This document shows positions 3,101 to 29,909 of a DNA stretch of 34,576 bases, piece after piece (position 1 is the stretch's first letter; each line of letters opens with the position of its first letter). The stretch is taken from IMG/VR virus record IMGVR_UViG_647533110_000001; one strand, 5' to 3'. This DNA is from a virus (Duplodnaviria > Heunggongvirae > Uroviricota > Caudoviricetes). Position numbers and translations under genes: made by a program. The notes under the pieces were generated by a model that had not been told where the DNA came from, did no database searches, and saw only the letters and a list, made by a program, of their open reading frames with translations.

Positions 3101-6100
3101 CTAAAATGCTGCAACCGCTCTCACCATGTTACTGTTGAACTTGTTGCTGTAGTAGAAGTTGCCATAACTAATGTTCACGACCCAGCTGTAGTTCTGACTG
3201 CTCTCACTGCTACTCCAGTGCCAAGAATTAGAAAAATCATTCAAAATACCGGCATCTATTGCTTTTTGAAAAATTGCACCTATTTTATCATCATCATAAT
3301 TCACTCCTTGCCTAGCGTGCCAATACATACGCATAAGTTCACCAACAGATGGTAGGTACCAATTATGATATTTAAATTTATCTGCTAATTCTTCGCCTGC
3401 TTTCACTGTAGGCTGATAAGCATAGCATTTGCTGACAGCAGGATAATAAAATTGTTGATATTTACTAAGATTCTCATTGTTAGCAATTATGTTATTTATA
3501 TACTGGGTCAACATTGCTTGTTCAGTATATAAGTCAGTCGCTTCAGGTATCGGCAAATTAACTCCTGAATCTTCTAAGATTTTATTTCTATGTTGAATAA
3601 TTTTTAAAGTTTTTGCTAAACCGACAGGAACTTCGTCACCTCTTTTATAGGCACCTGATAAAATAGCTAAATCCGCAGCCAATTCCTCTTTTCCTGTATT
3701 AATTGTACCTGGAGCAGCGATACCATCTCCAACAGCAACTGTTTTAACATCTGAATTTACAAATCCGTCAATTGTATTTTCATCTACATAATTATCATAC
3801 CTTATGTAGTTAGGAGAGGTATTACCTTGGTCGTCATATTCTGTAGGTTGTAAGCCAGTCTGTGTAATGTTAGCAATTGAACCTATATCATATACACTAT
3901 AATTAACATCATCTTGTAATTCAATAGGATAAATTGCATATTGTTCATTCCACTCTTCCGTTTGTCCTGTATTTTGAGGATAAAGCCCCCATACTATACC
4001 TGAATTTTCAAGATTTGATAATGCTACCATACGTCTATCATTGGCATCTGCTGGATTTATGTAAAAACAAATTCCAACTACGGTTTTTCCAGCAGTTGTA
4101 GGACCATAAGTTCCATCATAAAATACATAATCTCCGAGATGAGCACGTCTGGGGTATAAACCAATATCCCATGATGCTTCAAGCACTTCACCATTTGTTT
4201 TTGTTAGATAACATCTTAAAGTTGTATGTGGAGCCAATGTATCTTCATCTCCTAATTGAGATACATTGATAACGCAATAATCTTTTGACGTATTGACTAT
4301 TTTTGCATACAAATTGGTATCCAATGACCAACGAATGCTAACCACATCATTCCCATTAGCGGTATTCGGCTTACAGTAAAAAGTGTGTTCACCTGTAGAA
4401 TAAATGTATTGGCTTCCTTTGATTTCTATAGCTGCAATAGGAGTTGAGTAGTAAGTAATATGAAGATTGTTGTTCTCATCATCTACATTTCCCCAATGAT
4501 ACAACCAATCAATTTTATTGTTAAAATTAGGTCGGTTGGTAGTATTGTTTATTACTGCTATTTTTCCAGATACACTACTGTCTGTAATAGAAGCCAAATA
4601 GTTAATCATATAAAGAGAAACCTCGGTCCAGTTTATACTTGCTAACTTTAAATAATTCAGCGGTGCATTGCCTGTAAAGCATAAATTAAATATGGTACGC
4701 GAATCTGCAATCCCTGCGCCAATTGATAAACTTTGCATTCGGTCAGCTCCTTCCAATGTGATGGTTTTCAAATTAGGCTGTTGATCTAAAGACAAAGATG
4801 TTAAAGTCCCAGGAAGATGAACCTCTTCTAAATATTCGGTAGCTGGAAGAACAACAGAAGACAACATTGTTCCTACTAAATTCAACATTCTAAGTTTAAG
4901 CAAAATAGATAAATCTAAACCACCTACTAAACTAGCGACACGTTTTAATACTAGTTCTTGCAACAAAGGGGCAGTAATAGTCATACCGGTAGGACGGAAT
5001 TCAACAACATCTTTTCCATCCACATGAAAGGCTGTTAGGCGAGCACCGCTTAAATTAAATGTTTCTCCTAAACTTTTGTCTGTAAAGTCACCAATGGAAC
5101 GCATATAATCAATACCATTTAAGAAAATATTAGTATTGCCATCTGAAGTTCCAACATTGACATCGTATGTTTCTCCGGCTTTAATACGTGGAGACAGTGC
5201 GTTACCAACCCCATAAGATAGTGTCGAACCTATGGCAAATGAGGGGTACATCCAAATATGTGGTACAATAGAAAATTTAAATTGTGGACGTGTACCATCT
5301 GTTTTTATTATAGACCGGAAGTTTAATGAGCCTGCTGATCCTTCACCGTCACGCCTTCCAAAGTCTCCAAAGGCTGCATAAGAAGATATGTAGGTAAGTC
5401 TGCGTGCAACCCATTGCATTTCTGCTTGTAATCCATCTCCTAAACTTTGTGTTATGGGATCTGTACCATTTGTGTATTTATTTTCCGGGTCTGAACTCAC
5501 ATAGGCGGTTCTGGCACGTTCATATACAAGACGAGCCACTTCATTGTAAGCAACGGCTGGGAAATAACGTTGTACGTAAAAATAATATTTTTCCATACAG
5601 CCCATTAAAGTTCTATCATCACTTAATTTAAGCATTGCTTGTAATATAGAGCGCATATTGGTACGCAATTCATCTGGAAAAGCGTTTTCCATTTGGTTAA
5701 ATAGTGCATTCCCTTCGCTATTCCAATAAAAGCCTCCATCATTATTTTTATCATGTTCTTCTACATAGTAAGGTTTTTCTCTTTGCCCTACATTATTTAC
5801 AGGAAATATTGTGTCCAAATCATCTTGATGCCAACCAATTAAATGAGTTTTTGGGTCAACATAAAAATATATATTCTTTCCTCTGTTATCACTGGCTGCA
5901 ATTAACTTACAAAAATTCATAGCAAAATGAGTTTCTGTAAGATTAAAATATTTTCCTGCATCAGCCTTGAACAATGCTATTCTAGCCGTTTTGAACGATG
6001 AGTTAATTGCATCCCAATCTGTACCGCTGGCAATATTCCCGCATTGTTCGTTGATATTTACAGTCGAATATCTTCCACTTTCAATCTTTTCAGTGCCTGC

Positions 6101-17116: not shown

Positions 17117-20100
17117 TTACATCATATTTGCATTAAAATCTTGAACTACATCTAACAAGGCGGTTGCTAATTCTTGTTTTACGTTTGCTATTGCCGCAAC
17201 TTGTCTATCATCTGTCATATCAATTGTTTGATGCTCCACGTGCATTAGATTTTCTATTCGTACTATTAATTGCTTAGGAGCTGCATTATAATTATTATGA
17301 CTCCTATATTGAGACTGGTCGGCTCCGTTATGAAGGCTGGAAGCTAAATCTTGCTCTTTGTTACCAGTCGTAGGGTCCCACTTAAATGTATCTTTAGCAT
17401 TTTTAGGGGTATATATTTTCCCACTTTTATCTACCCACTGTGGAGTAGCGTATGGAGCTATTGTTTTAGCTATATATTGTGCCCCGTCAAAAATCGCTTT
17501 ATCACCTTCTTTCTGTGGACCATAAAAACCGCCCGTAGGAAGAACATCTCCTTCAGAAAGAAGATTTTGAATCGGTATTCTATTTATGAACGGAGCGAAC
17601 AAAGATTTATGTCCGGAATACAAATCGTTATACCAAGAAACTAACTTATCAAAGGTTTCAGTAATATAATCTATTGCTTCTTGTTGACTTTCTAGTTTAT
17701 ATTTCCCCGGATTGTTAACAATATCTTGTACATGCTTTGACCATCCTTCTGTTCCAAATAGCCCTTTAGTTGGATCAAACAACGGCCCAAATAACCCTTG
17801 TAATACTTTCTGGGTTCTTGTTGGATCTATTGTTTCTCCAGACTCAAAATCTTTAAGAATTGAAGCGTAATCATCCCATGCACTTATTGTTCCTTTCATA
17901 ATTTGAGCTAGATGACGTATATATGCTTGTGAGCGATGTACATCACCTTCGGTCATCTTATCATGGAATGTTTCTGTGCTAATCCAGTCCCATCGAGAAT
18001 CCCAACTACCCATCTTAGGTATAAATCTATCTGCTGCATTCTTTAGTATATTCGATAGATCTTCCGAACTACGAGCAGAAGTGGCATTGTGCAAAAGATA
18101 TTTGCTCAAAGCCATATTCTCTTTAGAATTATGGTCTGCTAATTGGGCCAGCATCATTTGGACGGCCACTTGTTCGCTTATATCTCCGTTTTTTGCAAAA
18201 ATATTAGTATTGGTTCCACTTAAAGTACGGCCATGTAACTCATACGCATAATAATTTTCACCGTTCAGACCTTTTTTGACAGTCTGTTTCATTCCCAGTG
18301 CGCCGGATAATGACTGGAAGGCTTTATCTACACCTGTCCATTGGTCTGCGGCTTCTAATCGTTTTAGTAATTCCGGGTCTCTACCTGCGGCTGTGTCAAA
18401 GAATTTGGTTTGGTCGTCTACACTTTGTTTGGGACCATTCTTTTCTATCCAGTAACGATGCCATAATTCAGCGGATTGAGCAATACGCTCGTTTTGGGTT
18501 AACAATTCATTATTGAAAATACGCATATTTCCAATCATTAAGGCATCTGGATCGGATAGATTCAACTTGTCAACATTCAAATTACGATAGCTTTGTGCCC
18601 ATGCTTCATTAGCTTGGCGAGCAGCTTCTGTTATTTTATATGCATCATAAATTTTATAACCTATATAAGTGATAGCTCCTGCTGCCATTACCCCCCAACC
18701 AATTGGATTAGTTAAGAAAAAACGTGAAAACCCTTTTATTGCTCCCCATAATGTTGTATTGCCTATTTCCGTGAGGGTATTTATAGTCTTATTACTACTA
18801 TTTGCTACAACATTACCGACTGTACTTCCTCCAACAAACCATTGTTTAATTTTACTTCCACCATGTAGTAAACCTCCACCTAACGCATTGAATATAGCCT
18901 GTCCTTTATTTAAATTATGGCGGCTTTTTTCTATATTATATATACGTACCATATAGGTAAGTGCGGTAAATAGCGGTTTTAAAAAGAATTTAGACAACCA
19001 ATCTCCCATAAACAATCCACGAATCATTAATGTCGTACTCCATATACTTTGAACTACGCCTGCTGCAATTCCTAACGACATTTGGATTCTTATAAAATAT
19101 TGAAGAACGGTCTTCCCCCAATTTGGTATCCAGTTCCAGACAGTCATAATGCCTTTAAACACACCAACAATAACATTTGCTATTTTCAAAAACATGTCCA
19201 TTGCATTTCTCAATGCAGTTGCAAACTCTGTGGATTTCATTAACTCAATCATGCGTTGCAGGAAGTCTCGTATTACTCCTTGCATTTGTTCAAACCCTTG
19301 CATTCCAGTTTCTGTAAATGCCGAGGTCATCTGATACCAAAGACCCTGTATGGTGTTTTTCTTTTCGTCGGCAAGGTCGGATGCAAGCCCCATTGACTTT
19401 TTATTGAGTCCGGTTACTTCTTGCATTTTTGCTACATTATTTATTAATGCTAGTGCACCTGGAGCCGCTGTTACCCGAAACATCTTGTTGATTAGTGTTG
19501 AGAAATCACCAGCACTCATGGTTTGCTGTTTTTCATGTAAATCACTTAAAATGTCAGAGAGATTCCGAAGATTTCCGTTTTTATCTTTTGTGTTGATGCC
19601 TAATATGTCCCATGCTTCTTGACCTCTTTTAGTAGGGTTCATCATATTTAATAGCATCATACGTAACGTAGTACCTGCGTGAGAACCTTTGATACCGGCA
19701 TCGCCTAATACACCAAAAGCTGCCGAAGCAGTTTCAAAATTTAACCCTGATTGATGGGCGACAGTACCGGCATATTTAAATGATTCAGCTAATTCTAACA
19801 ATGTTGTATTCGTTTTTGTGAACGTCATCGTAAGAATGTCTGCTGTGTTATCCATCTGTTTTGCTGGGATTTCATAAGCGGTCATAATGTTGGTTACAAC
19901 ATCCGCTGTTTCTCCCAAGTCTGTATCACCTACTAGTGCAATATCTGATATAGGCCGGATAGCATGTTTTATTTGATCGACATCATATCCTGCCATAGCT
20001 AAGAACTTTCCAGCTGATGCAACTTGTGGGGCTGTATATTTAGTCTCAACACCGACTTGGCGCATGAGCTGGTTCATTTCATTAAACCGACCTTCAAACC

Positions 20101-20854
20101 CTACACCTTTATCGTGAGTCTGGAGGATATTTTTTGTCGTTTTGGCTATATTGTCATAGGTAGAAGCATCTCTAAATACAGAAGTTACCCCAGACATTAA
20201 AGAGCTAAGCCCATAGGCAATTCCCATACCCTTAATCATTTCGCCTGCAACATTTGTACCTGTGTTGGCGTATGTTGGACCTAATACTTGCCGAGTAGAT
20301 GGATACAGATAAGTACTTCGTCCTGCTTCAGTCTGTCGTGTTGAAGTGGAAGTTGTATTTCTAGTTGTGCTACCAGATACCCCCTTAGATGCGCCAGCGG
20401 CACTGGCTGTAATGGTTATTTTACTATTCGACTTAATCTGTTCTATTTTCTGTATTAACTTATCAAGACTACTTATTGCTCTTTCTGTATTAGCCTTTGG
20501 CTCAATCGTTTTACCATTTATAGAACTAATAGCTTGATTCAATTTCTTTATATCCGAAGTTGAATATAAAGGTTTACCTAATGCAGTCTTTGCCTGTGAT
20601 TTTATATTATTGAGTTTAGTTAAGATGCGATCTAAACTTGCTTCGGCTGCACTTGTATTGATTTGTATGTTTATAGGTTTGGTCTTAATAGAAGCCAATG
20701 CTGAATTAACCTTACCGATGCTTTTTGCAACAATATCAAATCGCTTTGTTAATGCTTCCATTTCAGCTGTGGCCTGCTGAAATTTACGTATAGACTCTAA
20801 AGCTGGATTAGAGTTAACGTTTATCTGATAATTAACAATATAATTTTCTGCCAT
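17117..20854 (-). CDS. Tail tape measure protein
   Basis: 1245 aa, Ala/Gly/Thr-rich. TP901-type core (TKYTAPQVASAGKFLAMAG...GIKGSHAGTTLRMMLLNM) and hydrophobic middle segment. Follows the tail chaperone. Confidence 0.92.
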   Translation of the reverse strand: MAENYIVNYQINVNSNPALESIRKFQQATAEMEALTKRFDIVAKSIGKVNSALASIKTKPINIQINTSAAEASLDRILTKLNNIKSQAKTALGKPLYSTSDIKKLNQAISSINGKTIEPKANTERAISSLDKLIQKIEQIKSNSKITITASAAGASKGVSGSTTRNTTSTSTRQTEAGRSTYLYPSTRQVLGPTYANTGTNVAGEMIKGMGIAYGLSSLMSGVTSVFRDASTYDNIAKTTKNILQTHDKGVGFEGRFNEMNQLMRQVGVETKYTAPQVASAGKFLAMAGYDVDQIKHAIRPISDIALVGDTDLGETADVVTNIMTAYEIPAKQMDNTADILTMTFTKTNTTLLELAESFKYAGTVAHQSGLNFETASAAFGVLGDAGIKGSHAGTTLRMMLLNMMNPTKRGQEAWDILGINTKDKNGNLRNLSDILSDLHEKQQTMSAGDFSTLINKMFRVTAAPGALALINNVAKMQEVTGLNKKSMGLASDLADEKKNTIQGLWYQMTSAFTETGMQGFEQMQGVIRDFLQRMIELMKSTEFATALRNAMDMFLKIANVIVGVFKGIMTVWNWIPNWGKTVLQYFIRIQMSLGIAAGVVQSIWSTTLMIRGLFMGDWLSKFFLKPLFTALTYMVRIYNIEKSRHNLNKGQAIFNALGGGLLHGGSKIKQWFVGGSTVGNVVANSSNKTINTLTEIGNTTLWGAIKGFSRFFLTNPIGWGVMAAGAITYIGYKIYDAYKITEAARQANEAWAQSYRNLNVDKLNLSDPDALMIGNMRIFNNELLTQNERIAQSAELWHRYWIEKNGPKQSVDDQTKFFDTAAGRDPELLKRLEAADQWTGVDKAFQSLSGALGMKQTVKKGLNGENYYAYELHGRTLSGTNTNIFAKNGDISEQVAVQMMLAQLADHNSKENMALSKYLLHNATSARSSEDLSNILKNAADRFIPKMGSWDSRWDWISTETFHDKMTEGDVHRSQAYIRHLAQIMKGTISAWDDYASILKDFESGETIDPTRTQKVLQGLFGPLFDPTKGLFGTEGWSKHVQDIVNNPGKYKLESQQEAIDYITETFDKLVSWYNDLYSGHKSLFAPFINRIPIQNLLSEGDVLPTGGFYGPQKEGDKAIFDGAQYIAKTIAPYATPQWVDKSGKIYTPKNAKDTFKWDPTTGNKEQDLASSLHNGADQSQYRSHNNYNAAPKQLIVRIENLMHVEHQTIDMTDDRQVAAIANVKQELATALLDVVQDFNANMM

Positions 20855-20969: not shown

Positions 20970-21161
20970 TTACGCAAGCATTCCAAGTGCACTTGCTTGT
21001 TGAGTTATGAGCATTTTGCTGTGGAGCCATACGGCATCTTCAGAAAGCATTGCAAATTCTTCATCGTTTAACTCATCAAGGTTTACGCTGGGAAAATAAT
21101 GACGGATAAATATCAGTCTATGACGAATAAGTTGATCGTCTTTTACTTCCCAGCTTTTGAT
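20970..21161 (-). CDS. -1 frame extension of the tail assembly chaperone (gpT-like, 63 aa; fusion 186 aa)
   Basis: Open -1 frame IKSWEVKDDQLIRHRLIFIRHYFPSVNLDELNDEEFAMLSEDAVWLHSKMLITQQASALGMLA, with no ATG near its 5' end (first Met at residue 38). Entered via in-frame heptamer A-AAT-TTA at 21167-21161. Confidence 0.75.
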   Translation of the reverse strand: MKSWEVKDDQLIRHRLIFIRHYFPSVNLDELNDEEFAMLSEDAVWLHSKMLITQQASALGMLA

Positions 21162-21529
21162 AAATTTACGAGTTTTCCTTTGCGCAACTCGATAATTTGA
21201 GCCAGGTGTGGCATCAAGCCATAGATGAACAAGGAATCATCTTTAATCAGTTCTTTATCGCCATCGACAAAGCAATCTTTTGCCAATTCTCGCATGGCAC
21301 CGGCCTGGTCCTTTTGGGAGAGGGACAAATATTTACTGAATGTCGGGAAAGGCGGCTGTTTAAAATAACCGATATAATATGGCTTTTCGCCTTCGTCTTC
21401 ATCTCCTTCCACAAAAATCGGGAATACACGTTTTAGTTTGGGATCTGAATCTTTCAGCTCTTTTACTTTCTTTTCAATCTCGGTCTGAATATCTTCAGGC
21501 AAGAAAAGGTCTTCGTTTACATTTTCCAT
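21143..21529 (-). CDS. Tail assembly chaperone (gpG-like)
   Basis: 128-aa acidic protein between tube and tape measure, ending in a slippery heptamer; canonical chaperone position. Confidence 0.8.
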   Translation of the reverse strand: MENVNEDLFLPEDIQTEIEKKVKELKDSDPKLKRVFPIFVEGDEDEGEKPYYIGYFKQPPFPTFSKYLSLSQKDQAGAMRELAKDCFVDGDKELIKDDSLFIYGLMPHLAQIIELRKGKLVNLSKAGK

Positions 21530-25138: not shown

Positions 25139-25678
25139 TTAGTCAAGTGTTTTAAATTGGAAATCTGTTCCTACGACAGCTTCAACAGCCTTAGCCATTT
25201 TCTTTTCTGCCTCGGTCATCTGATTTTCTGCATTTTCAATGTTGGCAGGGTCATTTGCAATTTTAGCAGAAATTTTATCACGTTTTGGAATGGAATTCAG
25301 CGTTGCCTGTACCATCTCAAAATCGTTTTGAGCCATTTCCACCCATTTAGTTTTTGCATCAGAATTGATTTTACCTTCAGCAATTGCATTGTCAACGAAC
25401 TGTTCGATAGTTTCTTTACGTTTTGCTTCTTCAGCATCTTTGTAACTTTTCAATTCGTTCTTGACAGTTGTCAATTCGTTTTGAACATTGGTAAGTTGCG
25501 CATCCAATCCTTCTTTCTGAATTTTCAAAGCATTGTATGAAGCCTGAATTTCTGCTGCCTTGTTTTCCGCATTTTTCAATGCGTCAATTCGGGTAATAAC
25601 AGCTGAAACTTCAGAGGTTTTCTCCAAACCAAGCTGGGCGCATACAGAACCAAATGCAAATTCTTGTTCTTTGTCCAT
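25139..25678 (-). CDS. Putative nested scaffold protein from an internal in-frame start (179 aa)
   Basis: ATG 25678 (MDKEQEFAFG...) follows an A-rich leader (AATTCACAAAAAACA) and a promoter-motif copy 39 nt upstream, at the protease/coiled-coil boundary. Confidence 0.6.
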   Translation of the reverse strand: MDKEQEFAFGSVCAQLGLEKTSEVSAVITRIDALKNAENKAAEIQASYNALKIQKEGLDAQLTNVQNELTTVKNELKSYKDAEEAKRKETIEQFVDNAIAEGKINSDAKTKWVEMAQNDFEMVQATLNSIPKRDKISAKIANDPANIENAENQMTEAEKKMAKAVEAVVGTDFQFKTLD

Positions 25679-26410
25679 TGTTTTTTGTGAATTTGAATTT
25701 TCTATTTGATTTTGATTAGGAATAGAACTGGAATCATCAAGTGGTTTAAAATTGCCCAGTTCTGTATTGATAGAAGCCATGATTTTTTGAAGGGCGTTCG
25801 CTTCCACTACTCCTTCAATTTGATCTTTTACTTTATTACAAACCTGTTTAGAGGTTTTTAAAACACATTCTGCTGATAATATACCGGCGTTTACGGCAGA
25901 TTTTGCATCAAAGTAAGTTCCATCACAACCTTCTTTTCCATCCATGATTTCTCGAACCTTAGCTTTCGTCAGACCAAATCTTTTATGATATATGGTTTCA
26001 ATCTGTTTCTGAAAAGCATTTACAATTTGTTCATTGTCTGGGTTGCATGACTTTTCGTCACGTATGAAGGGGTTGTGGATCATTAAAATAGAATAGTCAC
26101 GCATGTAAGAACGAGTTCCTGCCGCCCACAGTACTGAAGCCATTGATGCTGCCAATCCTTCCACAATTGTTTCAACTTCAATGGGACATTGCTGTATAAT
26201 GGAGAATGTTCCCATTCCGTACAGAACGCTTCCACCTTCACTATTAATGCTGATTATAATTTTCGAGGGTTTAACGTAATCTTGTATCCATAAAAATTCA
26301 TCATTAAAATTACGTGTGCTCTCTTCATCAATTTTGCCATAGAAGCGCATATATACCGGTTTTGCTTCTTGCGCTTCTCCAACTACATATTTTAATTCAT
26401 CTACTTTCAT
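25139..26410 (-). CDS. Clp-type prohead maturation protease with C-terminal scaffold domain
   Basis: INSEGGSV, GLAASMASVL (catalytic Ser) and LMIHNP (catalytic His) ClpP-like motifs. C-terminal coiled coil followed by ETIEQFVDNAIAEGKI...KTKWVEMA. Confidence 0.9.
   Translation of the reverse strand: MKVDELKYVVGEAQEAKPVYMRFYGKIDEESTRNFNDEFLWIQDYVKPSKIIISINSEGGSVLYGMGTFSIIQQCPIEVETIVEGLAASMASVLWAAGTRSYMRDYSILMIHNPFIRDEKSCNPDNEQIVNAFQKQIETIYHKRFGLTKAKVREIMDGKEGCDGTYFDAKSAVNAGILSAECVLKTSKQVCNKVKDQIEGVVEANALQKIMASINTELGNFKPLDDSSSIPNQNQIENSNSQKTMDKEQEFAFGSVCAQLGLEKTSEVSAVITRIDALKNAENKAAEIQASYNALKIQKEGLDAQLTNVQNELTTVKNELKSYKDAEEAKRKETIEQFVDNAIAEGKINSDAKTKWVEMAQNDFEMVQATLNSIPKRDKISAKIANDPANIENAENQMTEAEKKMAKAVEAVVGTDFQFKTLD
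25718..25747 (-). promoter_or_regulatory. Putative late promoter inside the protease gene (scaffold-capsid)
   Basis: AAACCACT-N14-CTATTCCT. Confidence 0.65.
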
Positions 26411-26462: not shown

Positions 26463-27236
26463 TTATTCGACTTGACCGGTTGGAGGATCAGTTGAAGGCA
26501 TTTCTACAGAAGGTTCATACTTAGCTACATCTTCGATTTTAGGTTCCTTGTGATTACCATGTGCTTCTGAATCATGTTCTGGTGCATCAGAATGGTTCGT
26601 GAATGGTGGCATAACTAAATACCTGTCTACCCATTTGCGATACTGGAAAGAGGATGATGTTCTAAACCATATCTCGTAGTCAATCCAGTATGGCTGTAGC
26701 CCATGATCTAAAGATTCCGGCATATCAAAATAGGTAAGATTGCAACGTTCATTTAATGCTTCTTCGTAATCTTTCGCATCTTGAATTGCATCATTGATCT
26801 GTTGAAAAACGCGAAATCCATGTGTCTCAACAATATCGTCACTATTGTTTAAATCATTAAGCACAAATCTGATACGCATAGTGGCACGCCCTTCTCCAAT
26901 TCTTTGTTGGGCAACTAAATAACGTACATTCACAAACCGAATAAATGCCGCAGGAAAAGGTATAGCATATTCTGTATTACCACGAGTACGAACAATACGT
27001 TCAAACTGTCCGTTATCTATTTTTACAGTTTGGAATAGTTTAGGCGAATTATTATCGTTAGGGTCTGTATGTAAGGACTCTAATACACGTTTTACAGCTA
27101 AATACACATCCTCTAAAGGGTTGTTGTCTACTTCCTCCAAAGTAGTATCGTCATCATCGGGAAGGGGAGAGGTGTCTTTTGCAAACGTGTCTTTTAAACT
27201 GTCCGGTAAATCTGTTTTATATTTATCTACTATCAT
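26463..27236 (-). CDS. Probable neck/tail-completion protein
   Basis: 257 aa with ATGA overlap to the upstream gene. Motif YAIPFPAAFIRF...RATMRIRF resembles tail-terminator-type proteins; assignment is tentative. Confidence 0.45.
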   Translation of the reverse strand: MIVDKYKTDLPDSLKDTFAKDTSPLPDDDDTTLEEVDNNPLEDVYLAVKRVLESLHTDPNDNNSPKLFQTVKIDNGQFERIVRTRGNTEYAIPFPAAFIRFVNVRYLVAQQRIGEGRATMRIRFVLNDLNNSDDIVETHGFRVFQQINDAIQDAKDYEEALNERCNLTYFDMPESLDHGLQPYWIDYEIWFRTSSSFQYRKWVDRYLVMPPFTNHSDAPEHDSEAHGNHKEPKIEDVAKYEPSVEMPSTDPPTGQVE

Positions 27237-27727
27237 TTTGGAAAGCCATCAAAAATACGAATACTGTAAGATGAAATTTTATCAGCTACGGTTGTAGAAT
27301 ATCCTATAAATTGCCTTTGTCTAATATAGGATGCTGGAGAACCTGGTTTGGCAATTTTCCCTCCTTCATTATGTATTGCTGCATAACAAAAGTTTCTTCC
27401 ATATTGCCTATTACTAAATTTGAACATGTCTGGATCTGTGAATAATTTAACACCACGATTCTTATTAGAATGAAAGCGTTCCCATATTATTGAATGTTTT
27501 AATGCTCCTGTTTCTTCCAATATAGGGTGTGGCTTATGATTACGTCTGGATTGCCAAGAAAAAGTTCCGGCTGAATTGAACCGCCGGAGATAAAAAGAGT
27601 CTCTAAATATTTTTTTTGCGGCATTACCTACCAATGTTTCAAAATTGAATACATTAACTTCAAATTTATTAGGCAATCTCAACCATTGTTGAGCTAATTG
27701 TCTTGGAGTTATTACTTTTCCAGCCAT
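27233..27727 (-). CDS. Virion morphogenesis protein (Mu gpG-like)
   Basis: Basic 164 aa with ILEETGALKHSI, YAAIHNEGG and RQRQFIG motifs. Confidence 0.75.
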   Translation of the reverse strand: MAGKVITPRQLAQQWLRLPNKFEVNVFNFETLVGNAAKKIFRDSFYLRRFNSAGTFSWQSRRNHKPHPILEETGALKHSIIWERFHSNKNRGVKLFTDPDMFKFSNRQYGRNFCYAAIHNEGGKIAKPGSPASYIRQRQFIGYSTTVADKISSYSIRIFDGFPK

Positions 27728-28590
27728 TTGTCCTTAATTTTATTAGCAATGGTGCGCAGCCTCTTTTTATGCTTTTTAGGAATAATAAAGTATGAATGTG
27801 CATCACTAAATATTCGCCCACCCTTTGCTACACTTTCTTTAAATACTGGATTAACAAAATCGGGCATCTCAATAATTTGTCCCATCACCTGTGATAATTT
27901 GGATTGGTTGAGAACGTCAGCACTTTCTTCTACTAGAAAACAACGGCATCCATGTTCAATTGGGGGGATTAACCATGCTGGGAAAGATGCTTTGCGGTAG
28001 CTAGTCCCTTCTAATGCAAGGTGCCAAGGGCGCACCCTATTATCTCCCTGTGTCATATATGTTAACACTGTATTATTGCTATACAAAATCCAACCAGCAG
28101 CAATTCCCATCGCATATTCAATATCTTCGTTTTCAATATTCGCGTATATGCTATTGTATCTGTGAAAAATATTTTCAGCTTCTGCCAGATCTACTTCATT
28201 GGTAATATTAAAATTGTCTGGAAGGTTCTCCGACATCTGAAATTCTTCAGCTACTGCAAAATCAACAAGATTATCTAATGCAGCTACTAATATATTACGT
28301 TGCTCTTTTTCTAATTTGGTTAATCCATCATTGTGATTACGAAGTAATTCCAGTGCTTTTTCAAAGTCCATACCAAAACCTTTGATTGCATGATTCAATG
28401 CAAATTCCGCACGTAACGTCATCATTTCTTCTAATAAATCCCAACGATCCTCTATATTGCCATAGTCCTGTAAAAACTTCTGGAAAACAGCGTAGATAGC
28501 AAGGTATTCAGCATTCTCTTCATCTTTGTTCGATTTAGATTCTGCAAGGACGGAAGGAGAAGTGCTATCTTTTATTCTCCTTCCATTAGA
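27712..28590 (-). CDS. MuF/SPP1 gp7-like minor head protein; frame open 55 codons upstream of its first ATG (28425), probably expressed as a portal fusion
   Basis: MuF motif YMTQGDNRVRPWHLALEG...PPIEHGCRCFL. The frame is open up to a TGA at 28599-28597, immediately before a slippery heptamer. Confidence 0.8.
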   Translation of the reverse strand, partial: SNGRRIKDSTSPSVLAESKSNKDEENAEYLAIYAVFQKFLQDYGNIEDRWDLLEEMMTLRAEFALNHAIKGFGMDFEKALELLRNHNDGLTKLEKEQRNILVAALDNLVDFAVAEEFQMSENLPDNFNITNEVDLAEAENIFHRYNSIYANIENEDIEYAMGIAAGWILYSNNTVLTYMTQGDNRVRPWHLALEGTSYRKASFPAWLIPPIEHGCRCFLVEESADVLNQSKLSQVMGQIIEMPDFVNPVFKESVAKGGRIFSDAHSYFIIPKKHKKRLRTIANKIKDKWLEK

Positions 28591-28596
28591 AAATTT
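28552..28596 (-). other. Putative programmed -1 ribosomal frameshift signal
   Basis: In-frame heptamer A-AAT-TTT (28596-28590), 5-nt spacer CTAAT, then perfect stem GGAAGGAGAA / 13-nt loop / TTCTCCTTCC (28584-28552). Confidence 0.7.
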
Positions 28597-29909
28597 TCAA
28601 CGTTGCTTGAATTCTTTCGTTCACCACGCCTATGCCCATATCTTTTGTAATATTCTTCATCGGACATAATGCGTCTATCATTGGAACTTCCATTTATGCT
28701 CCCGCTATTACTTGCCATTTCCGATATAGCGTTAAATTGTTTCCCTACGACAATACCAAATTCTTTTTCGATTTCATCTGCTGATACTTCATACTTATCT
28801 GTAATAAAAGAATATAAGCTAATCTTGTCTTTGTTACTCATTTCTACACGGTTGGCATATTTGAATTCTAATCCCGGCTTGATATATCCCATAGATACTA
28901 ATCTAGGAACGATCTCTTCATTCATTACATTTTCAATGAAACCGCGATACATTTCTATGCGCTCCCGAAAAATGTCTTGGTGAGCATTTGTTGATCCAAC
29001 ATAAGATTGGGTTGCTCCAGCCATAGATTCAGAGCCAACTATTAGATTAGAAACTTCTGTATTGGCAAAATTTATTAAACTAGTATATATGTGTTCGGAA
29101 TTTGACATTGTAAATGTCTTAATGTCAATATCATCGTTCAATCCTGTGACTATTATTTTATTCTGAGCCGCATTTGCAATGTTTTGTGCTAATCGTTGTC
29201 GATCTTGGATGCTTTCTGATTCAGTCTTACCATGTATGATAGGTTGACCATAAGTATGACTAAAATTAACATAATTAGCAAGAGTGAATTTTTTTGCAAG
29301 GATAGTTGGGGTAGTTGCAGAGAATAGCCCCAAGTCACCATTATCAATAAGTATATAATTCTTGGAGTATTGCGATGAAGCAATATCCCATCCAGGATTC
29401 CACTGCCCTTGTCTTTGCACAACTCGTAATTGACTTGCCAATACATTTCTTCGCTCAATAATATTTACTTCAGCTAGCTTTCCTGTTAAAGGATTAATAT
29501 CAGGCATTATTTCTAATAAGGTGTAACCGTACCATTTGGCTTCAACAATACCTTTTATGATTTTAGTGAATTGAGAACCTTGTATCTTTTTGGTTTCTTC
29601 TACATCCTTAATATATTTTCCTCGTTCATTTTGTCTTGCCAACATGTATCGTTCGCCTATAATCTGTGATTCTACAGTTTCTAATACTGCACGTAAATGA
29701 GCATCCTGCTCTACACATGCTTCGTATAAATCTATCAGTGGACCACGATCATCTAAAACAACCCCGCGTGTTACTTGGGATTGAATGGATTTGTATCTAC
29801 AATGACGGTCAATCTCCCTAACATATTCTTGAATAGTTTTTTTGCTAGTTTTAAATATGCTTTCTAAAGGAGTGCCGTGAAATGTTGTTTCTGCACTAAT
29901 TACATTCAT
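28572..29909 (-). CDS. Portal protein (Mu gp29/DUF935-like)
   Basis: 445 aa with DLYE...DAHLRAVL, EAKWYGYTLLEI, F...YGQPII.GK and EISNLIVG-like (EVSNLIVGSESM) motifs; precedes the MuF-like gene. Confidence 0.85.
   Translation of the reverse strand: MNVISAETTFHGTPLESIFKTSKKTIQEYVREIDRHCRYKSIQSQVTRGVVLDDRGPLIDLYEACVEQDAHLRAVLETVESQIIGERYMLARQNERGKYIKDVEETKKIQGSQFTKIIKGIVEAKWYGYTLLEIMPDINPLTGKLAEVNIIERRNVLASQLRVVQRQGQWNPGWDIASSQYSKNYILIDNGDLGLFSATTPTILAKKFTLANYVNFSHTYGQPIIHGKTESESIQDRQRLAQNIANAAQNKIIVTGLNDDIDIKTFTMSNSEHIYTSLINFANTEVSNLIVGSESMAGATQSYVGSTNAHQDIFRERIEMYRGFIENVMNEEIVPRLVSMGYIKPGLEFKYANRVEMSNKDKISLYSFITDKYEVSADEIEKEFGIVVGKQFNAISEMASNSGSINGSSNDRRIMSDEEYYKRYGHRRGERKNSSNVENFLMEGE

Follow-up and report, generated by a model that had tools for sequence, protein, structure and literature searches.

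A predicted programmed −1 frameshift at a phage portal gene's 3' end would fuse a MuF-like head protein to the portal

Introduction

How is a phage head protein translated whole when the upstream part of its reading frame holds no start codon? The question is raised by a tailed Bacteroidales phage (Caudoviricetes) recorded in IMG/VR as IMGVR_UViG_647533110_000001, whose entire analysed stretch of 34,576 nucleotides (nt) we refer to as the window. On its minus strand, a portal gene is followed by a gene for a MuF-like head protein, and the frame of the latter stays open far upstream of its first possible start, back to the end of the portal gene. An original prediction, made from the letters of this DNA alone, proposed that ribosomes reach the second frame by programmed −1 frameshifting, which would produce a portal–MuF fusion protein alongside the ordinary portal. 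Here we follow up that proposal by dissecting the junction, by comparing it with related junctions from phages, prophages and viral contigs, and by weighing other ways in which the MuF-like protein could be made. The comparison makes a functional frameshift at the portal 3' end very probable.

Results

Anatomy of the portal–MuF junction

The portal gene (28572-29909, minus strand) encodes, when read without a shift, a protein of 445 amino acids (aa) and 50.6 kDa. Its 3' end reads GTT GAA AAT TTT CTA ATG GAA GGA GAA TAA and contains, in the portal register, the slippery heptamer A_AAT_TTT (28590-28596, minus strand), which in the zero frame would place Asn439 in the ribosomal P site and Phe440 in the A site. 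A 5-nt spacer, CTAAT (28585-28589, minus strand; 3 nt if an extra A-U and an extra U-G pair form), leads to a predicted stimulatory hairpin (28552-28584, minus strand). The 5' arm of this hairpin, GGAAGGAGAA (28584-28575), and its 3' arm, TTCTCCTTCC (28561-28552), are perfectly complementary over 10 bp, and the 13-nt loop between them (28574-28562) opens with the portal stop codon TAA (28574-28572). RNAfold adds two further pairs, giving a 12-bp stem; the 52 nt 3' of the heptamer fold at −16.3 kcal/mol, and a 111-nt fold reaches −25.6 kcal/mol (z = −2.78 versus shuffles).

In the −1 frame, a TGA (28599-28597) stands directly 5' of AAA TTT, after which the frame is open for 294 codons up to the MuF stop. 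The first ATG, GTG or TTG in this open reading frame (ORF) is an ATG ATG pair at 28425. Upstream of it lies a start-less extension of 57 codons (K F plus 55 more; 28426-28596, minus strand) that is homologous to the N-termini of relatives, while the remainder of the MuF-like gene (27712-28425, minus strand) corresponds to the 237-aa ORF that gene callers annotate. A shifted ribosome would read the zero frame up to TTT (28592-28590), read base 28590 a second time and go on in the −1 frame, giving at the junction ...VENF|SNGRR... The predicted trans-frame product (27712-29909, minus strand) would thereby join portal residues 1-440 to 292 further residues in a protein of 732 aa and 83.6 kDa. Its predicted tryptic junction peptide is NSSNVENFSNGR, the extension (28590-28426) is predicted to yield DSTSPSVLAESK and DEENAEYLAIYAVFQK, and the predicted C-terminal peptide of the unshifted portal is NSSNVENFLMEGE.

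The original prediction had described this anatomy element by element: the heptamer, the 5-nt spacer, the 10-bp hairpin with the stop at the start of its loop, the TGA just before the heptamer followed by 55 ATG-less codons into MuF, and products of 445 aa and 440 + 292 = 732 aa. All of this holds at these minus-strand coordinates, and GTG and TTG are absent from the extension as well. The heptamer by itself carries no weight, since AAATTTT occurs 29 times in the window against ~36 copies expected by chance in such A/T-rich DNA. What lends it significance is its frame, its position, the hairpin and the conservation in relatives described below.

Evidence that the start-less extension is coding

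A database search with the 294-residue −1 ORF returned 617 relatives. Many of them have lengths of 275-292 aa and can be aligned across the extension, the conserved block AEYLAIYA.F.KFL...WDLLEEMM included. In six start-less lineages, this AEYLAIYA... block has a nonsynonymous difference rate (pN) of 0.14 and a synonymous rate (pS) of 0.81 (pN/pS = 0.17), indicating that the extension is under purifying selection at the protein level. An AlphaFold2 model of the −1 ORF reached a predicted local distance difference test score (pLDDT) of 77 and a predicted template modelling score (pTM) of 0.76. In this model residues 1-21 are disordered (pLDDT < 50), helices span residues 14-43 and 48-74, and the prediction is confident from about residue 21 onwards (10-residue block means 77-95). 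The extension would accordingly encode a disordered linker of ~20 residues, helix 1 and the start of helix 2 and, given these helix positions, the 237-aa ATG-delimited ORF would be left without helix 1 and the start of helix 2. Homologue alignment, pN/pS and predicted fold all point to the start-less stretch being coding.

One database protein seemed to offer an upstream start. P0001 (292 aa, 99% identical) begins MYKRQ..., and we rejected it as an adapter artefact: its first codons, GTG TAT AAG AGA CAG, lie at a contig end and are what we take to be the end of the Nextera transposase adapter. On this contig of 2945 nt, an untrimmed adapter thus made a false start codon that entered a public protein collection.

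The heptamer is conserved as nucleotide sequence

Related loci were gathered from two IMG/VR scans, contigs of an abundant Bacteroides prophage portal, GenBank phages and a scan of species-representative genomes. According to a frame-aware classifier, 159 loci have MuF at −1 relative to the portal frame, and these loci correspond to 72 distinct junction sequences (from IMG/VR and assemblies) that reach down to ~40% identity. The heptamer reads A_AAT_TTT in 65/72, G_AAT_TTT in 4/72 and N_TCT_TTT in 3/72, and its T_TTT part is kept in all 72. The portal stop follows 6-10 codons 3' of the heptamer, and the −1 extension is open and in frame in 72/72 junctions despite changes in linker length. When 50 species-representative genomes were scanned separately, the same cassette turned up at ~42 loci from many Bacteroidales genera. 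In a tree of portal and MuF, the many deep branches all bear the heptamer, and the G_AAT_TTT and N_TCT_TTT forms each fall into one derived clade.

Codon choice at the site is far more restricted than in the rest of the gene. Asn is encoded by AAT in 69/69 cases, versus 52.7% elsewhere in the same portal genes, and Phe by TTT in 69/69, versus 48.0% elsewhere. The base before AAT is A in 65 of 69 sequences, compared with 23% at third positions generally. Because this A ends eight different codons—GCA, GAA, GTA, ACA, GGA, AAA, CAA and CTA, for eight amino acids—the constraint acts on the nucleotide and not on the amino acid. A further candidate statistic, the number of open −1 codons between heptamer and portal stop, was dropped: the interval is short and purine-rich, and only ~1.3 stops would be expected over 27 distinct spacers.

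Upstream of the heptamer, none of the 72 junctions has an ATG, GTG or TTG in the −1 frame. Downstream, 31/72 junctions lack all three codons before the first conserved helix, and 56/72 lack an ATG there. Where candidate starts are present, they are scattered over the loop, the 3' arm and the sequence after the hairpin. With starts either scattered or absent, gene callers assign inconsistent N-termini to MuF.

The G_AAT_TTT form is found in loci L086-L090 (e.g. L088, 4300-4350; GCA_019415045.1, Bacteroides sp.), where hairpin and −1 arrangement are kept. This lineage is an abundant Bacteroides prophage (portal cluster P0223, 112 contigs) in which gene callers begin MuF at a TTG within the 3' arm of the hairpin. 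The N_TCT_TTT form is carried by L151, L153 and L154. Judging by both lineages, it may be enough for the A-site tRNA to slip by itself on U_UUU.

The hairpin is conserved through compensatory change

A hairpin is present in 72/72 −1-frame junctions (median ΔG −18.2 kcal/mol, median z −2.87) and starts 0-5 nt after the heptamer when extra flanking pairs are counted. Its arms are lineage-specific and complementary to each other (GGAAGAAGAA/TTCTTCTTCC, GGGAATGAAG/CTTCATTCCC, GGGAACGGA/TCCGTTCCC and GGACGAAG/CTTCGTCC). In an alignment of 40 sequences, double-sided changes occur at 8 of the 10 stem pairs, and 87.7% of cells pair, as opposed to 77.9% after shuffling and no more than 72.5% with the partner slid along. 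The covariation score was 0.527 versus 0.332 for shuffled alignments, with 0/500 shuffles as high. For a second set of 47 distinct sequences we used a covariance-model alignment—one that is itself fitted to the structure—and obtained 86.9% paired cells and a covariation score of 0.55 versus 0.33. The covariance model built from the 40-sequence alignment returned one match per locus, at the junction only, across 422 kb on both strands. Fixed-column pair counting on the 72-sequence alignment had been abandoned, as the loop of one clade is one base shorter, and the covariance-model alignment took its place.

The original prediction had proposed to look among relatives for conservation of the heptamer, for compensatory changes in the hairpin and for the ATG-less extension. 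The heptamer is conserved (65/72), compensatory changes occur in the stem, and MuF starts are scattered or absent.

Lineages with a separate MuF start lack the cassette

Nature also offers the converse arrangement. In one clade (L102, L103, L104, L114 and L149, together with L203 and L204 from bacterial genome bins), MuF is a conventional gene with its own ATG, 7 nt past the portal TAA and in the +1 frame (junction about 1970-2050). The portal of this clade still ends ...NFLKE. Its site codons read C_AAC_TTT, the linker is deleted and the downstream 48 nt fold at 0.0 kcal/mol. In a separate lineage, L213, the MuF ATG overlaps the portal stop, again in the +1 frame, and both heptamer and hairpin are gone. 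In the portal and MuF tree (midpoint root, no outgroup), the ATG-start clade is nested within heptamer-bearing clades (Shimodaira–Hasegawa-like approximate likelihood ratio test, SH-aLRT, 97) and is therefore most simply read as a secondary loss. At greater distance, Flavobacterium phage FPSV-S1 (~26% identity) has an ordinary stop, a 4-nt gap and an ATG.

An ATG-initiated MuF in homologues without a conserved cassette had been named at the outset as the case that would speak against a frameshift. The opposite was found: essentially every relative with a −1-frame MuF conserves heptamer and hairpin, and the few in which MuF has a genuine ATG start carry it in the +1 frame and lack the cassette. 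As far as these sequences tell, heptamer, hairpin and absence of a start come and go together, which is the signature of one functional unit, and their joint loss where MuF has its own ATG supports the frameshift reading. The L102-L204 clade and L213 would also provide natural comparison phages for asking what the fusion does.

Conversely, no hard-wired, in-frame portal–MuF fusion was found among the best 120 of 1,325 portal matches. Since none of these 120 closest portal clusters has fused the two genes outright, both the plain portal and the fusion appear to be maintained.

A similar motif in the tail chaperone gene

The phage's own tail chaperone ORF (21143-21529, minus strand), directly upstream of the tape measure gene (17117-20854; 1245 aa), ends ...GTA AAT TTA TCA AAA GCT GGG AAG TAA. 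It contains A_AAT_TTA at 21167-21161 (minus strand), five codons before the stop, and its −1 frame is open for ~63 more codons. This site, itself a prediction, occupies the classical G/GT position and shares with the portal site its P-site codon and the kind of its A-site codon, which agrees with A_AAU_UUN acting as a slippery motif in this host.

Proposed mechanism

The junction combines the hallmarks of a canonical −1 cassette: an in-register heptamer, a covarying downstream structure, a conserved start-less −1 ORF and constraint at synonymous sites. Together with the conservation of heptamer, hairpin and synonymous sites in relatives, which supports what the original prediction had read from a single sequence, these features lead us to consider a functional programmed −1 frameshift, yielding a portal–MuF fusion, very probable. 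Inferred from this anatomy and from the comparative data are the slippage itself, how efficient it would be, and what would become of the fusion and what it would be for.

In the proposed sequence of events, a ribosome that reaches A_AAU_UUU would have its P site occupied by tRNA-Asn and its A site by tRNA-Phe, while 5 nt downstream the hairpin, located at the mRNA entry channel, would resist unwinding. The majority would stay in frame, decode another five codons and terminate at the loop's UAA, releasing the 445-aa portal. A fraction would slip back by one base, the P-site tRNA re-pairing from AAU to AAA and the A-site tRNA from UUU to UUU, and would then read TCT AAT GGA... through the hairpin and the ~20-residue linker into MuF, giving the 732-aa fusion. 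The outcome would be a fixed ratio of plain portal to portal–MuF, in which the copy number is set by frameshift efficiency and, likely, a few of the twelve portal subunits carry a C-terminal MuF domain. Full-length MuF is probably made in this phage only as a fusion, because no start precedes codon 58 and the upstream part holds a conserved helix. In known portals, the C-terminal crown is turned towards the inside of the capsid. Frameshifting would, in this way, tether a sub-stoichiometric number of MuF domains to the portal ring, which is consistent, by analogy, with SPP1 gp7 and with the portal–MuF fusions of Microbacterium phages (see Discussion).

Beyond the single phage, we favour, with distinctly less confidence, a reading for a large and ancient Bacteroidales clade that includes the phage BS-TP1 and prophages in Bacteroides, Phocaeicola, Segatella, Alistipes and Muribaculaceae genomes. 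In this clade MuF would never be free and would exist only as a C-terminal extension on a minority of portals. The cassette would be ancestral, separate expression would have re-evolved at least twice with loss of the cassette, and frameshift efficiency would serve as a targeting and copy-number device.

Several observations weigh against a frameshift. Re-pairing of the P-site tRNA from AAU to AAA leaves a wobble mismatch, and in the two derived clades (G_AAT_TTT and N_TCT_TTT) the P-site part of the heptamer is degraded while the arrangement is kept; there, either single-tRNA slippage on U_UUU is enough or other means operate. Some relatives have an ATG, GTG or TTG in the loop or just past the hairpin, and these codons could add independent initiation. 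Both arms of the hairpin lie in coding sequence, and the stem pairs a purine-rich with a pyrimidine-rich arm, such that shuffled controls already pair at ~77%. Related junctions are not phylogenetically independent, so that naive probabilities overstate significance. Finally, contigs from RNA libraries cannot prove transcription.

Alternative explanations

The best-surviving rival, which we still regard as improbable, is that MuF is made on its own rather than with the portal, whether from a non-canonical codon or through termination–reinitiation at the portal stop, for instance at the ATA at 28575-28573, which overlaps the portal TAA, with the hairpin and the A/T-rich tract regulating the coupling. 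Bacteroidota do not rely on Shine-Dalgarno pairing, and start-site rules are looser in this phylum. Moreover, some distant homologues have an ATG or GTG at the portal stop (GTGA, or an ATG in the loop), suggesting an ATGA-type coupled start in parts of the family. However, the codon that overlaps the stop varies between relatives (ATA, GTA, GCG, GTG and others), and burying the putative start in a hairpin would hinder initiation, not promote it. Independent initiation would also leave unexplained why a fixed synonymous A_AAT_TTT sits 15-21 nt upstream of the stop, and both heptamer and hairpin are gone in precisely those lineages in which a real ATG start exists.

A second possibility, that only a 237-aa product is made from the ATG at 28425 and that the 55 codons upstream are the decaying remnant of a longer ancestral gene whose start was lost, strikes us as very unlikely. 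The 236-237-aa form is indeed the one that gene callers report, with 815 member sequences in its cluster, and the leader before the ATG ATG pair is A/T-rich. Decay is nevertheless difficult to reconcile with a pN/pS of 0.17 at a pS of ~0.8 in six start-less lineages, with an extension that is open and in frame in 72/72 junctions, or with helix 1 of the predicted fold lying within it. The MM pair, for its part, is a conserved internal motif (LLEEMM) that is present too in homologues with upstream starts.

We give just as little credit to slippage of RNA polymerase on the A4T4 tract, which would add a base to the mRNA or drop one. Some phage and insertion sequence (IS) genes are known to reach such an outcome through transcriptional slippage, and it is plausible in a Winogradskyella phage that has a run of ten A at the equivalent place. 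Runs of four A and four T, by contrast, are too short for efficient polymerase slippage, and the process has no need of a covarying downstream RNA hairpin at a short, fixed spacing of 3-5 nt. Nor did the contigs of three RNA libraries (7-34 kb) contain an indel, though such contigs hide rare variants and show no transcript ends; we did not use them as evidence of expression.

The chance that a sequencing or assembly error—a 1-nt indel in a single fused ORF or in a normal gene pair, a concern raised in the original prediction—created the arrangement is negligible, because positions 28200-29000 are identical and free of indels in four independent assemblies (three RNA libraries and one isolate DNA run) and because more than 70 distinct related junctions from hundreds of samples, including BS-TP1 and complete bacterial chromosomes, share the same two-frame arrangement.

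The head module

The frameshift very probably at work here sits in a Mu-like head module, whose order on the minus strand is portal, MuF-like, Mu G-like, an unknown gene and a Clp protease/Mu I-like scaffold gene. The portal is of the Mu gp29 type (PHROG 113 portal) and matches the Portal_Mu family PF06074 with E = 6.4e-46 and 157.7 bits (cut-off 23.9) over profile positions 2-336 of 336. The MuF-like gene, of Mu gp30/SPP1 gp7 type, lies directly downstream of the portal gene, which fits the context rule of PMC5576092. Its product scores 23.5 bits (E = 1e-4) against PF04233 Phage_Mu_F, under the cut-off of 29.6. PF04233 is matched at E ≤ 1e-3 by 16/20 aligned homologues (best 5.5e-7), precomputed PF04233 assignments are carried by many database homologues, and weak PHROG matches point to head morphogenesis and minor head protein families. 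A Foldseek search of the AlphaFold2 model of the MuF-like −1 ORF against the PDB gave no match at E ≤ 0.001, and hence no structural confirmation of MuF membership.

Further along the minus strand follow the Mu G-like gene (27233-27727; weak PF05069), the unknown gene (26463-27236; no family evidence) and the gene for a Clp protease fused to a Mu I-like scaffold (25139-26410). The Bacteroides −7 motif TAnnTTTG does not occur on the minus strand between 27669 and 30702, which is weak negative evidence on an internal promoter.

Distribution and annotation of the cassette

The exact sequence of 28200-29000 (runs X1-X18) occurs in genome runs of at least 7 isolates and in mouse-gut metagenome and metatranscriptome libraries. 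Its presence in isolate genome runs means that the phage or prophage is available in cultured strains. By their labels, the hosts of the cassette include Segatella copri, several Bacteroides species, Phocaeicola coprophilus, Alistipes, Prevotella, Palleniella muris, Muribaculaceae, Dysgonomonas termitidis, Rikenellaceae and others, and the cassette is also found on viral contigs of 50-140 kb. A few cassette-bearing bins labelled Firmicutes or Actinobacteria are probably binning errors.

The same heptamer and hairpin cassette is present in BS-TP1 (L082, PQ571274.1), a cultured temperate Bacteroides phage. In its annotation, a 113-nt 'intergenic' gap (3229-3341) between the portal gp45 and MuF gp44 corresponds to the open −1 extension; the BS-TP1 genome paper makes no mention of a frameshift.

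Two further loci deserve mention. In Winogradskyella phage Peternella_1 (L083, MT732475.1), the portal-like gene ends CCT AAA AAA AAA AGT CTA AAA AAA GTG GTC TAA, and MuF lies in the −1 frame (2573-2704), open from past the TAA at 2575 to an annotated GTG at 2704; the record labels the second gene 'head morphogenesis protein /portal protein'. The A-runs of this phage may be another slippery version of portal–MuF recoding. In L021 (IMGVR_UViG_3300029872_000072, 1-650), a 99%-identical copy of the C-terminal 165 residues of the present MuF follows unrelated A/T-rich sequence, which replaces the rest of the MuF gene and the portal; this may be a rearrangement or an assembly chimera.

Discussion

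The original prediction had not been aware of any description of a portal–MuF frameshift, and neither have we come across one: none is described in PMC10885494, PMC5576092, PMC8008677, PMC12694917 or bioRxiv 10.1101/2025.10.02.679949, and a full-text literature search found none either, with incomplete coverage that is no proof of absence. The mechanism as such is canonical; the novelty lies in which two genes are involved and in the prediction that a portal is covalently extended by a second conserved head protein.

The closest parallel in mechanism is the −1 frameshift that produces the tail chaperones G and GT in lambda and the majority of long-tailed phages (Levin 1993; Xu, Hendrix and Duda 2004, both as cited in PMC7911831, PMC6316719 and PMC8008677). 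The two systems share an X_XXY_YYZ heptamer a few codons before the upstream stop, a start-less downstream −1 ORF, two products with a common N-terminus in a fixed ratio, and a site whose position is conserved across diverged phages. They differ in that the chaperones belong to the tail and the present site, which is not upstream of the tape measure gene, to the portal vertex of the head. Unlike in G/GT, moreover, the extension is an entire, widely conserved virion protein, MuF, which most other phages encode as a gene of its own, and a strong covarying hairpin is integral to the cassette.

In architecture, the predicted product resembles the single-ORF portal–MuF fusion genes of Microbacterium phages (EA3, EA5 and EA8 subclusters and cluster EB; PMC7302621), with an N-terminal portal and a C-terminal MuF-like part. 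That such fusions exist shows a covalent portal–MuF protein to be compatible with head assembly. In those phages the ORF is continuous and every subunit bears MuF, whereas here the stop codon (28574-28572) and the change of frame separate the two parts, and both plain portal and fusion would be expected.

SPP1 gp7 binds the portal, is present in 1-2 copies per capsid and is targeted to the capsid interior through the portal (PMC5576092, PMC6316719). As with SPP1 gp6/gp7, a MuF-family protein is here encoded directly after the portal gene. The SPP1 proteins, however, are separately initiated, non-covalent partners, while the link predicted here would be covalent and its copy number set by recoding.

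In Escherichia coli, the tau and gamma products of dnaX arise through a −1 frameshift on an A/U-rich heptamer with a downstream stem-loop at short spacing. The portal site is likewise a bacterial −1 shift site with an A/U-rich heptamer and a close downstream stem-loop. The dnaX site, which served as a control in bioRxiv 10.1101/2025.10.02.679949, has A_AAA_AAG in place of A_AAU_UUU. Shifted ribosomes on dnaX end almost at once and yield a shorter protein, whereas the shifted product here would be 287 residues longer, and an upstream Shine-Dalgarno-like stimulator is neither evident at the portal site nor expected in Bacteroidota. A −1 frameshift in a head protein of Lactobacillus phage A2 is reported by Garcia 2004, a paper listed among the references of PMC10885494. 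[quoted passage not shown]

Should the portal–MuF frameshift be real, it would explain how a low-copy internal head protein reaches the portal vertex in a fixed number. It would link three states of the portal–MuF pair: the non-covalent one of SPP1, the frameshift fusion described here and the hard-wired fusion of Microbacterium phages. Hundreds of gut phage and prophage genomes, in which MuF is now truncated or spuriously started and a gap of ~110 nt is called 'intergenic', would have to be re-annotated. The site would further be a naturally occurring −1 frameshift signal that can be tested for Bacteroidota, in which translation works differently from that in E. coli. Beside G/GT in the tail, it would constitute a second widely conserved recoding event in the morphogenesis of tailed phages, this one in the head module.

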